64,000 nt of DNA, taken from Escherichia coli (GTDB lineage Bacteria > Pseudomonadota > Gammaproteobacteria > Enterobacterales > Enterobacteriaceae). Made by a program: the position numbers. The stretch is from the NCBI RefSeq assembly GCF_030013205.1, contig NZ_CP122648.1. One strand, 5' to 3'. This document shows positions 26,701 through 29,700 of the stretch, one piece after another (the first letter of the stretch is position 1; every line of letters begins with the position of its first letter).

Positions 26701-29700
26701 ATGGCGAAGGTAAAACTCGAGGCAATTTGTCTATCCTGAAAAAATCAATGGCTACAAATCAGGCCTGTTGCAATGTTGAGATTGATTCTGATAAAGCTGA
26801 TTATGAATATGTTTATTATTTTTTAAAGACACAATATGATGAGCTTCGCCAGCTATCTTCCGGTGTTAGAAAAAACCTTAATTCTAACGATATAAAAAAC
26901 TACCCTATTCGTTTGCCATCCTCTCTGGACGAACAACGAAAAATTGCCTGTGTATTAAAAGTATTAGATGACAAACTTGCTCTCAACAACCGCATCAACG
27001 CCGAACTGGAAGCGATGGCGAAAACGCTGTATGACTACTGGTTTGTACAGTTTGATTTCCCTGATGCCGACGGAAAACCGTATAAAACCTCCGGCGGTAA
27101 GATGGAGTATAACGCCACGCTGAAACGGGAAATTCCGGCGGGGTGGAATGACTCCATTCTTGGTAAGTTTATTGAGTTAGATCGTGGCGTTACTTATAGC
27201 AAAGAGGATGTTCGAACTCAGGATGATAAAGATACGATAGGCATTCTTCGCGCTACAAATGTGACGGGAAATAATGTTGATATTGATGATTTAGTCTTCA
27301 TTCCTTCTAGTAGAGTAAACGTTAATCAAATGCTAAATAAATTTGACATATTGATCGTGATGTCAAGTGGTAGTAAGGAGCATGTAGGGAAGAATGGCGT
27401 GTATTATTTCGAAAAAAAACATGCATTTGGCGCATTTTGTTCAAAAATTACACCCGTCAGAAAATACAGATATTTTATAAATACATTCCTGCAATCGAAA
27501 TGGTTTAAGTCTTATATAAACAATCAGTGCTTGGGAACTAATATTAATAACCTGACCAATACGCATATCACTAATTGTGAAATCATATGCCCCACTCCTG
27601 ATGTTGTGGCGTTATTCGAGAATAAAATGATGCCAATTTATAATAAACTGGCATCAAACACTCAAGAGAATAGTCATTTAATCCAACTCCGCGACTGGCT
27701 CCTCCCTCTACTTATGAACGGACAGGTCACGGTCAAATAATCCCCGGCGTGGTTTTGCGAGGCGCATTCCAGATCCGCATTGCGCCGCACTCACCGCAGC
27801 AAAACCGCTTGCCGTTCATAACCGATCGCAGTATCTTTCTCCCGCGCCTGCAAAATCAGGCGTCGGGATTAGCCTCCTGAAAACCGTTACAGGCGACACT
27901 TGACGCACCAGCGTCTTTTTTGTGTCGTGCGTTCGGCTACACCTCAATGGCGGGCCGGGCGGGGGCGTCGCAAGACGCGCCGGTTTCCTGTAACGCCGGT
28001 AAGGCTAACCCCGTCCGGTTCCGCCCCCATGAGATTAGCCTCTCTAGTGGCGGACATAATAAACCGTTACAGGAGACGCCCTATGGCTACAATCCTCATC
28101 TCTGACTGCGATTTACTCGATCTATTGTCCGCTCCCTTCAATGCCACCACGGATTTCACCGTCCTGGCCGACTACTGCGCCCGCTTCGCCGAAACCCTGA
28201 TAGAAACCGACGATCCGGCGCTGCGGCTGGCGCTCTGCGGACGGCTTCACGCGGCTCTTGCGCTATTGCAACCCACGCTGCACGACCCCATCCCGCCGCA
28301 TCTGATTGAAAGCCTGACCGTTGATACCCTTCCCGCCACACCAGAGCACTTTATTTCCGAACCAGATTCCTTGTGCGAATACTGCCTCGCGCTGCTCCAG
28401 CTACTGCTGGAACGTCCAGCAGAGCCAAAAACGGAACAAACCCTGACCGGGCTTCTGTGTGAGCTGGTCTGGAATTTCACGGAAGGACTCAAATCCCCGC
28501 GCTGGCTGCGTACCGCCGACGGCGTAAAATTTATCAGTGAGGTGGCCGCATGATGCAACAGGACTGACATTCCGCCAACATTATTGCGGTGCTGAAAAAG
28601 CGGGGAACGCCTCTGGCGGCACAGAGAAAAACTCATTGCGGAAGCGCTGTAAATATCGCCAGAAATCATCTGGTCCTCAAGGTACTTTGATAGCAAAGGC
28701 AAGCAGGCTGGTTCAGTCCAGTGTTTCTCTTCTTGCATTTTCAGAAATGGGAGGCTGGGAGTCTATCGAAATGGTTCGTCGATATGCTCACCTTGCACCT
28801 AATCACCTTACCGAACACGCACGGCAAATAGACTCAGTCCTGAACCCATCGGTCCCAAATTTGTCCCAGTCAAAAAATAAGGAAGGTACTAATGATGTGT
28901 AACTTATTGATTTAAATGGTGCCGATAATAGGAGTCGAACCTACGACCTTCGCATTACGAATGCGCTGCTCTACCAACTGAGCTATATCGGCCCTGAAAG
29001 GACATGTTCACGAACGTGAATCACGGTGGACAAGGTTAAAACTAACCGGGCGATGCGTCAATGGCCTTGTGAATCAAATGGCTACTTTTGCATCACCCGG
29101 TTTTATTTACGCACGAATGGTGTAATCACCAATGCCGATCCACTTGTAAGTGGTCAGTGCTTCCAGCCCCATTGGGCCACGCGCGTGGAGTTTTTGTGTG
29201 CTTACCGCCACTTCCGCACCCAGACCAAACTGGCCGCCGTCGGTAAAACGCGTAGAGGCGTTAACGTAAACAGCGGACGAATCCACTTCGTTAACAAAAC
29301 GCTGGGCGTTGCGCATATCGCGAGTCAGGATCGCATCGGAGTGTTGCGTGCCGTGTTCACGAATATGGGCGATGGCATCGTCAAGATCGCTGACGATTTT
29401 GACGTTCAAATCTAATGACAGAAACTCATCGTCATACTCTTCCGCTTTAACAGCCACCACCTTCGCGGGGCCTGTCTGCAACTGCGCCAGTGCACCTGCA
29501 TCAGCGTGTAACGTCACGCCACTTTCCGCCATTTGTTTGCTTAATGCGGGCAGGAAACTATCGGCGATGTTTTTATTCACCAGCAACGTTTCAACCGTAT
29601 TACATGTGCTCGGTCGCTGAGTTTTCGCGTTGACGATCACTTTTAATGCTTCAGCGATCTCCGCGCTTTCATCAACGTAAATATGGCATACGCCTATACC

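Follow-up and report, generated by a model that had tools for sequence, protein, structure and literature searches.

A predicted RNA immunity cassette of the P4 and P1/P7 type and the first gene behind it in a probable decayed island at thrW of Escherichia coli

We analysed a 64,000-nucleotide (nt) stretch of Escherichia coli DNA (RefSeq assembly GCF_030013205.1, contig NZ_CP122648.1; hereafter the window) with respect to an open reading frame (ORF) for an acidic protein, ORF157, and the repeat-bearing leader in front of it. The region adjoins the tRNA-Thr (CGU) gene thrW, beside proA. It is probably (we put this at about 80%) what is left of the regulatory end of a P4-related integrative island that has decayed at thrW, namely an RNA immunity cassette of the P4/P1 type together with the first gene under its control. 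Judged from its RNA family matches and its complementarities, the leader at 27844-28077 is an immunity cassette of the P4 and P1/P7 type, composed of an IsrK/SeqA-like element, a C4/CI antisense RNA and a seqC target. Such a cassette is an already known kind of system that Rfam annotates. New here is ORF157, an uncharacterised occupant of the gated position; how such a cassette is wired into islands that are not phage satellites has been little described.

The leader RNA

An earlier note on this DNA, made from the sequence alone, had described a repeat occurring twice upstream of the ORF, an inverted partial copy and a GC-rich segment, and had read them as an operator array or a structured leader. 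All of these features are present. The structured leader was borne out by the isrK and C4 models of Rfam, which matched the leader with covariance-model E-values of about 1e-12 to 1e-13 (Table 1); the operator array was not, given the covariation of loops and repeats described below.

The 5' element carries two target sites, b1 (27864-27875) and a1 (27885-27893), and ends in an intrinsic-terminator hairpin (27902-27915) followed by TTTTTT. This terminator was flagged both by a terminator scan and by fold prediction. On 27831-27883, a further model, RF03163 (c4-a1b1), scored 43.8 bits and thus fell slightly short of its gathering score, 46.7. The predicted fold of the C4 RNA had a minimum free energy of -50.3 kcal/mol (z = -3.97), and the GC-rich segment formed its long stem. 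Two segments are exposed in this fold, a' (27983-27995) in a hairpin loop and b' (28002-28013), which is unpaired.

The repeats could be assigned to these elements. One direct repeat, GATTAGCCTC, lies at 27867-27876 and 28033-28042 (10/10 identical), and another, AAACCGTTACAGG(C/A)GAC, at 27881-27897 and 28061-28077 (16/17 identical). The inverted copy CCTGTAACG at 27987-27995 is loop a' of the C4 RNA. A second inverted element, which had not been noticed earlier, is AGGCTAACCCCG at 28002-28013, complementary to 27864-27875. The first repeat of the earlier note is seqA (b1 + a1) and the second is seqC (b2 + a2), in which a2 overlaps the Shine-Dalgarno sequence AGGAG of ORF157 (28071-28075). 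The 64-kb window holds exactly three copies of the composite motif TTAGCCT-N(5-35)-GTTACAGG, two on the plus strand and one as the complement. All three copies fall within 27869-28073, against 0.00 expected from 100 shuffles.

A putative promoter precedes the leader. It has a -35 element TTGCCG (27809-27814), a 17-nt spacer and a -10 element TATCTT (27832-27837), and transcription would be expected to start at about 27844. The -10 block GTATCTTT is kept in the alignment of related loci, and P4 carries TATAGT equally far from seqA.

RefSeq places a coding sequence (CDS) named 'ash family protein' over the C4 RNA. It is out of frame with ORF157 and is probably the translated C4 RNA gene, so that a gene product of its own is unlikely here. 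PF10554 (Phage_ASH) matches the obsolete cI ORF of P4 (L022, 8168-8584) over the stretch that encodes the CI RNA, and the true P4 epsilon is PF25738. The 52-aa (amino acid) translation was also matched by several PHROGs labelled 'transcriptional regulator'. CI has been described as encoded inside a Phage_ASH gene (PMC10111431), and PF10554 served as the epsilon marker in one survey of P4 satellites (PMC8628076). The annotation would need correction in that 'ash family protein' CDSs and PF10554 largely represent a translated C4/CI RNA gene.

Table 1. Features of the leader, of ORF157 and of their surroundings in the window
Feature	Position	Strand	Basis
Putative sigma-70 promoter, counterpart of P4 PLE	27809..27837	+	Read from sequence
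IsrK/SeqA-like leader element	27844..27921	+	Rfam RF01394 isrK, 68 bits (gathering score 50)
C4/CI-type antisense (immunity) RNA	27943..28031	+	Rfam RF01695, 71.8 bits (gathering score 45), E = 4e-13, full-length model
seqC-type target: b2 28033-28041, a2 28065-28077	28033..28077	+	Complementarity to C4 loops
ORF157, 156 aa + stop	28083..28553	+	First translated gene downstream of the C4 RNA; AGGAG 7 nt before ATG
'Ash family protein' CDS, 52 aa (RefSeq)	27947..28105	+	Annotation and translation
Ner/SfsB(Nlp)-like HTH_35 gene remnant	28550..28703	+	Alignment to the intact gene of L004 and L012; RefSeq pseudogene
Foreign integrase, SfI/SfII/SfIV type (thrW-using phages), C-terminal remnant only	28699..28902	+	tblastn, 86% identity to SfI, SfII and SfIV integrases
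tRNA-Thr (CGU) thrW, attachment site anchoring the island	28917..28992	-	ARAGORN; Rfam tRNA, 71.8 bits; RefSeq context proA-thrW
Variable cargo slot, hsdR-hsdM-hsdS here	21701..27808	.	Between AbiEi/AbiEii flank (left) and cassette promoter (right)

Covariation of loops and targets

In the window, a' is complementary to a2 at 13/13 positions and b' to b2 at 8/8. For the analysis of covariation we used 12 loci upstream of ORF157 homologues and compared P4 in addition. The loci came from E. coli (four variants), E. whittamii, Klebsiella, Salmonella arizonae, Citrobacter, Dickeya, Brenneria and one metagenome. A single-sequence scan of genome contigs gave three of the loci, and the others were added by exact-sequence look-up. 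The repeats and the ORF recurred in the related islands, with the same layout in all 12 loci. P4 shared this layout as well, and the loops and both target copies varied jointly throughout. Counted from C4 and seqC, the first translated ORF is placed identically in P4 (where it is kil), in 11 relatives and in the window.

In the 12-sequence alignment, 92.7% of the cells were paired between C4 and seqC, and 12/21 pairs were compensatory; between seqA and C4, the values were 92.0% and 11/21. Neither result was matched by any of 500 shuffles, and slid controls were paired at only 27-46% and 27-50%, respectively. The fold and covariance analysis across homologous islands that the earlier note had proposed thus yielded a structured RNA with compensatory loop and target changes.

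At least five 'b' and six 'a' specificities were found across the 12 loci, with P4 as a seventh 'a' type. The b motif reads TTAGCCT, TTGGAAC, TTGGTCT, TTGACCT or TTGGCAT (GTGAGAA in P4), and the a motif reads TTACAGG, TTATCGG, TCACTGG, TTACTGG, TCATCGG or ATACTGG (TTCACAGG in P4). The a and b types are combined differently among loci. The same cassette with yet another loop specificity was seen at L031, where the protein is 34% identical. Since loops and repeats change together across related islands, they serve RNA-RNA pairing and are not protein operators. In addition, a2 includes the Shine-Dalgarno sequence in every locus, so pairing must occlude ribosome binding.

Proposed control of ORF157

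IsrK has been described as a structural homologue of P4 SeqA, and CI RNA as pairing with seqA and seqC, which leads to premature termination (PMC4825925). In P4-like prophages, IsrK corresponds to seqA and C4 to CI (PMC3632133). By analogy, we propose that a constitutive promoter at about 27809-27837 would drive the leader transcript. The 5' part of this transcript, the IsrK/SeqA-like element with b1 and a1, would end at the intrinsic terminator, and mostly a short IsrK/SeqA-like RNA would be made. Read-through transcripts would carry the C4/CI RNA, which would be excised and would accumulate. Its a' and b' segments would pair with seqC (b2/a2) on later transcripts and also with seqA. As a2 covers the Shine-Dalgarno sequence, the pairing would block translation of ORF157. 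The untranslated C-rich start of the ORF would then permit Rho-dependent termination inside it, and the whole operon would stay off. In intact relatives, the genes kept off would be ORF157, a Ner/SfsB-like regulator, the EFASI RNA and a PF12835 (MpsA/MOB_M-like) gene. In a cell without C4 RNA or with a heterospecific one, for example a newly entered cell, the operon would be briefly expressed until C4 builds up.

The first 78 nt of ORF157 contain 27 C versus 11 G, at about the 98th percentile of the window, and this bias is kept in homologues. Such a C-rich, G-poor start would fit a rut (Rho-loading) site like P4 timm. In the work of Forti et al. from 1999, kil is said to be the first translated gene of P4, and its translation reportedly prevents termination at timm. 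In position, ORF157 is the equivalent of P4 kil and P1 icd as the first gene gated by the antisense RNA.

Comparison with P4, P1/P7 and Gifsy-1

P4 matches the same two Rfam models in the same order, with isrK on seqA (8615-8692) and C4 on the CI RNA (8420-8507; 74.9 bits with RF01695), followed by kil. As in P4, the bipartite b/a targets flank the RNA, a2 overlaps the Shine-Dalgarno sequence of the first ORF, and the SeqA element ends in the same terminator hairpin. Related intact islands also carry a P4-type integrase at a tRNA gene. The differences from P4, which is arranged as PLE - seqA - CI RNA - seqC - kil/eta - epsilon - alpha, begin with the gated gene. ORF157 has 156 aa and shows no kinship to Kil (65 aa) or Eta (about 199 aa). 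Where P4 continues with epsilon, orf151 and the alpha primase, intact relatives have genes for a Ner-like regulator and a PF12835 protein. Functions of sid, delta, psu, alpA and cos are lacking in the window. From seqA to the RNA, the spacer measures 22 nt here versus about 108 nt in P4. Finally, the loop specificities differ from those of P4, so the element would be heteroimmune.

Here, as in the heteroimmunity of phages P1 and P7, specificity diversifies by covariation of loop and target. The RNA of their c4 - icd - ant (immI) system belongs to the same family, RF01695 (listed in PMC2864571), and has a1/b1 on its upstream and a2/b2 on its downstream side. It inhibits translation of the ORF that comes first after it, as is predicted here. 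However, the gated genes of P1 are icd, a cell-division inhibitor, and an antirepressor gene, and ORF157 matches neither.

The 5' element also likens the cassette to isrK - orf45 - anrP of Salmonella Gifsy-1, as it matches the isrK model. Short terminated and long read-through isoforms would be expected from the same architecture of hairpin and U-tract (PMC4825925). In Gifsy-1, IsrK opens the orf45 ribosome-binding site in trans, which leads to the antirepressor, whereas the geometry here is that of P4 and the downstream C4 RNA is predicted to repress. Homologues of AnrP and AntQ are absent here.

ORF157 and its family

The ORF and its good Shine-Dalgarno sequence were confirmed, although the protein has 156 aa and not the 157 given in the earlier note. 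It is indeed acidic and Leu-rich, with an isoelectric point (pI) of 4.38, a net charge of -14 and 31 Leu residues. Acidity is a property of the family: 31/34 members had a pI below 5.4, and most had a pI of 4.0-5.0 and a net charge of -7 to -18. The pairwise ratio of nonsynonymous to synonymous substitution rates (dN/dS) was 0.10-0.32 over the whole length, and conserved motifs persist down to about 30% identity. On these substitution patterns, ORF157 is a genuine gene under purifying selection. Clustering of the family gave 608 clusters at 90% identity, and 178 representatives remained at 50%. All members assignable to an organism are from Enterobacterales, and all are labelled 'hypothetical' or carry a mis-fused 'ash family' label.

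AlphaFold2, run with the 34-sequence alignment, predicted a bundle of four to five helices with a small C-terminal hairpin. Confidence was high (predicted local distance difference test, pLDDT, 92.1; predicted template modelling score, pTM, 0.85). The structure prediction called for by the earlier note thus gave a confident helical bundle, and no housekeeping or phage structural homology was found in the libraries searched.

We also agree with the earlier note that the protein cannot be assigned to a family. ORF157 had no match in PHROGs, NCBIfam or a profile search of the PDB. Pfam, ArdA and Ocr included, gave no match for ORF157 or any of the 34 family members, and PADLOC-DB v2 gave no family for ORF157 at E <= 1. 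The closest solved folds were generic four-helix bundles, and known DNA mimics were not among them. Foldseek searches returned only uncharacterised or 'Ash family' relatives from AFDB50 and no match at E <= 0.001 from BFVD, that is, no viral structural relatives. No relatives were found among IMG/VR viral contigs.

P4 Kil starts with MATTLTP, and the first residues MAT(T/I)L(T)P are common to ORF157 and Kil. This likeness is limited to the first 5-7 residues, which overlap the conserved seqC/start region, and hhalign of the family profile against the kil-containing P4 ORF gave a probability of 0.24% (E = 0.25). Kinship with P4 orf151, which had been suspected from the similar size, was not supported by hhalign. 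A metal-binding site was rejected, since of four recurrent cysteines only C32 is nearly invariant and the others are conserved at 59-68%. As a best guess, which we favour weakly, ORF157 may be a protein-binding early factor that works with or on the co-translated Ner-like regulator.

Cassette and ORF157 as island backbone

The window was compared by blastn with L002, a variant island at the same thrW site. Homology was found over the AbiE flank at 19001-21701 (95.8%) and at 27808-29400 (93.9%), with none between. In L002, a 1069-aa reverse transcriptase takes the place of hsdRMS in the slot. The slot content differs again in other relatives: DUF4747 with a 185-aa ORF in Klebsiella, DarTG (DarT/Macro) inside a type I restriction-modification system in Dickeya, Rhs or PAAR toxins upstream of the same promoter in the islands at the asn-tRNA site of E. 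coli, and an unknown 310-aa gene in Brenneria. The stretches in which this exchange was noted, flank included for the window, were 19001-27808 in the window, 5935-12001 in L002, 5834-9412 in L008, 1-7601 in L019 and 3652-6625 in L023.

As the cargo is exchanged while the cassette and ORF157 are kept, these two belong to the island backbone and not to the defence cargo, and the adjacency of ORF157 to hsdS is incidental. The earlier note had made ORF157 a candidate defence or anti-defence component from its position in a defence island. Its position does not support this proposal, because ORF157 and its leader are the conserved flank of the cargo-exchange slot, and in intact relatives ORF157 stands in one operon with the gene of a Ner-like regulator, ahead of a PF12835 gene and a P4-type integrase. 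As to co-occurrence with hsd/abiE, hsd is replaced by other cargo in relatives, and AbiE recurs at the distal end in three genera.

Decay of the downstream operon

The stop codon of ORF157 overlaps the start codon of the Ner-like gene (ATGA). In the window this gene is frameshifted and truncated and has a 65-nt internal deletion. Its intact homologues, of 73-84 aa, score 115 bits against the NCBIfam SfsB model NF007670 and match PF13693. The remnant is fused to the last 68 or so codons of an integrase of the SfI/SfII/SfIV type, with the sequence between them deleted. The integrase remnant of the earlier note is present, but by its similarity it is not the island's own integrase and lies outside the cassette. 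A single deletion has therefore removed the island's own recombinase genes and most of the neighbouring prophage. The same junction is found in L002 (12747-13099, corresponding to 28550-28902 of the window). The left part of L002 is 11% divergent although the junction is identical, which implies that the cargo side was replaced later by recombination.

In intact relatives, the ORF157 homologue is followed by the HTH_35 gene, sometimes by a HigA-like gene, and then by the EFASI RNA motif and a PF12834/PF12835 gene. The latter encodes a 294-aa protein of the tyrosine-recombinase type, after which come a convergent P4-type integrase gene and a tRNA gene. The PF12835 gene is present in L004-L009, L024 and L025. 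The window has none; the stretch from the Ner-like remnant to thrW has been deleted there. PF12835 serves as the signature of MpsA, the atypical tyrosine-recombinase-type relaxase (MOB_M class) of Salmonella genomic island 1, SGI1 (PMC10484663; bioRxiv 10.64898/2026.01.13.699239). The intact relatives are plausibly mobilisable islands, as far as gene content can tell. Compared with NCBIfam, the 294-aa protein has weak XerC/D similarity only, and its relatedness to MpsA is that of a shared Pfam family alone.

Like the SGI1-type mobilisation module, the intact relatives have a PF12835 protein, with an integrase and a structured RNA motif (EFASI) beside it. The primary transcript of SGI1 serves as mRNA and also as precursor of a small RNA, and a terminator close to the promoter limits it (PMC9299015). 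Unlike in SGI1, the mobilisation module does not survive in the window, and no oriT (origin of transfer) was identified; a C4-type RNA is not reported for SGI1.

The EFASI motif (RF02957) scored 98-120 bits and lay about 55-100 nt upstream of the PF12835 gene where downstream genes are listed (L003, L004, L008 and L024). Its coordinates are 13607-13735 in L003, 11733-11861 in L004, 11300-11429 in L008, 10362-10490 in L012, 9429-9557 in L013, 10187-10316 in L014 and 8389-8517 in L024. The position recalls the sgm-sRNA/oriT region beside SGI1 mpsA (PMC9299015), and EFASI might be an equivalent small RNA or part of an oriT.

The island in the window is immobilised, with only the cassette and ORF157 remaining intact. 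Its cassette would now control ORF157 only, and it may act in trans on incoming elements that share its specificity.

Distribution and locus

A 41%-identical homologue of ORF157 lies in an apparently intact P4-like satellite at thrW of other enterobacteria (L016-L018, 2948-13345), where there is no C4 RNA. The order there is int, AlpA, P2-type capsid gene, Icd-like gene, ORF69, ORF157 homologue, ORF159, epsilon, primase and Ogr/Delta. The capsid gene of L016-L018 encodes a P2-type major capsid homologue (PF05125), and the Icd-like gene falls in NF033153. Family members of 35% identity or less are single genes in unrelated chromosomal contexts, with the cassette present in some and absent in others.

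Three plasmid-like or short records were also noted. In the 35-kb E. coli 'plasmid' CP088862.1, the reverse-transcriptase cargo and ORF157 (95.5% identity) stand together with tail genes of an e14-like prophage; the record looks like misassembled chromosome and was uninformative. The 11.35-kb Salmonella record OX345322.1, which might be a circular island after excision, holds a PF12835 protein of 72% identity. A Pantoea plasmid match was also set aside as uninformative, the record being a P2-like prophage region.

An 860-bp region of the locus is identical to the chromosome of E. coli K_EC180 and to related swine strains. It was matched in 1074/5426 complete E. coli genomes, in 814 of them over >=80% of its length. 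The RefSeq order is AbiEii, AbiEi, HsdR, HsdM, HsdS, 'ash family protein', the hypothetical protein WP_000201175.1 (ORF157), a helix-turn-helix (HTH) pseudogene, an integrase fragment and tRNA-Thr. Core genes of P4-like satellites (integrase, AlpA, alpha primase, epsilon, delta, sid and psu) are not among the RefSeq annotations of the identical locus. Elsewhere in the window, an IS009 RNA family match (RF02111, 187.8 bits) at 9670-9870 on the minus strand is unrelated to the cassette.

Weighing the readings

Several points count against the reading of the region as a P4-type cassette with its gated gene. First, the cassette promoter was not listed by a consensus promoter scan: with 8/12 consensus positions it falls under the scan cut-off, and we infer it from its sequence. 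Second, hhalign probabilities of the ORF157 family against P4 Kil/Eta, ORF151 and epsilon were 0.05-0.24%, which leaves the kil analogy positional only. Third, the 'ash' frame, which continues into kil (as eta) in P4, is out of frame with ORF157 here, so a bypass of the P4 eta type cannot be assumed. In addition, L015, L016-L018 and L028-L030 have no C4 RNA, and the ORF157 family is therefore not strictly dependent on this control. Finally, given that the operon downstream is destroyed in the window, the cassette may be functionally vestigial in this strain.

The alternative that survives best is an addiction module, in which ORF157 would be a host-toxic early gene like P4 kil or P1 icd and C4 its antitoxin, a pair that stabilises itself after decay of the island. 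Precedents are kil of P4 and icd of P1, each of which comes first after a C4-type RNA and inhibits growth. The promoter, the RNAs and ORF157 are intact while both the window and L002 have a Ner-like pseudogene and no integrase or PF12835 genes, and L026/27 and L031/32 retain nothing else of the island. Moreover, dN/dS of ORF157 is about 0.1 between two variants with the same decayed right end. Induction of IsrK arrests growth of Salmonella (PMC4825925), and IsrK-like elements of P4-like prophages were 'required' in S. Typhi by transposon-directed insertion-site sequencing, TraDIS (PMC3632133). However, the soluble acidic helical bundle predicted for ORF157 is unlike Kil or Icd, and an Icd-like gene is a separate ORF in L016. 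Homologues without any C4 RNA argue against intrinsic lethality, and the divergence between the window and L002, which looks like recombinational replacement and not evolution in situ, weakens the selection argument. We consider an addiction module unlikely.

We are similarly doubtful of the idea that the C4 RNA and ORF157 form a portable selected unit, in which an acidic effector is made only without the RNA. Selection would keep such a unit after decay of the island around it, either as an addiction pair with a new class of protein, because derepressed ORF157 harms the host, or because ORF157 is a new entry-phase factor for anti-restriction or anti-repression in mobilisable defence islands. 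If this were true, the a/b loop 'barcodes' would mark competing incompatibility or immunity groups among non-phage islands.

ORF157 could also be an anti-defence protein, such as an anti-restriction DNA mimic, or a defence component, expressed in a burst on entry before C4 accumulates. ORF157 and most of its family are strongly acidic, the cargo of the island consists of defence genes, and the C4 circuit, by what is known of P4, would give transient expression in naive cells. The putative mobilisation module lies beside the gene in intact relatives, and genes for anti-defence are clustered around oriT in mobilisable islands (bioRxiv 10.64898/2026.01.13.699239). Against this stand the negative PADLOC and Pfam searches, ArdA and Ocr included, nearest solved folds that include no known DNA mimic, and the lack of relatives in the viral structures of BFVD and in IMG/VR. 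The adjacency to hsdS is accidental, as the cargo is swapped while ORF157 stays. The acidity seen in the earlier note is thus real and extends to the family, but its guess of a mimic found no support in the tests made, and we regard this alternative as improbable.

That the repeats are operators bound by a repressor such as the Ner-like protein, with the GC-rich segment incidental, is highly improbable: a direct repeat with a bipartite motif does lie upstream of an operon encoding an HTH protein, but a third copy, inverted and placed in the loops that a structured RNA (RF01695) exposes, is complementary to the motifs, all three copies change together and keep their complementarity, for which operators would have no reason, and in the window the repeats have outlasted the HTH gene. 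Equally hard to credit is a leader peptide whose reading frame serves only to set Rho termination, for although translation of the P4 kil region as such reportedly prevents termination and the 5' end of ORF157 has a rut-like composition, the low dN/dS over the whole length, the confident compact predicted fold, the motifs conserved to low identity and the family members without the RNA cassette all speak for a functional protein.

Implications

We therefore keep to the reading of a P4/P1-type RNA immunity cassette retained with its first gene at the regulatory end of a decayed island. It removes a false lead, since the repeats are no new operator system and ORF157 is no defence cargo. It describes a P4-type RNA switch wired into tRNA-integrating islands that are not phage satellites, and an exchangeable defence slot that begins exactly at the promoter of the switch. 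In these islands the switch is accompanied by genes for a P4-type integrase, a Ner-like regulator and a PF12835 protein of the recombinase/relaxase type, and by the EFASI RNA. ORF157 represents a sizeable uncharacterised family at the most tightly regulated position of these elements and is present in about one-fifth of complete E. coli genomes. Its function would reveal which tasks such islands have to accomplish within minutes of arriving.

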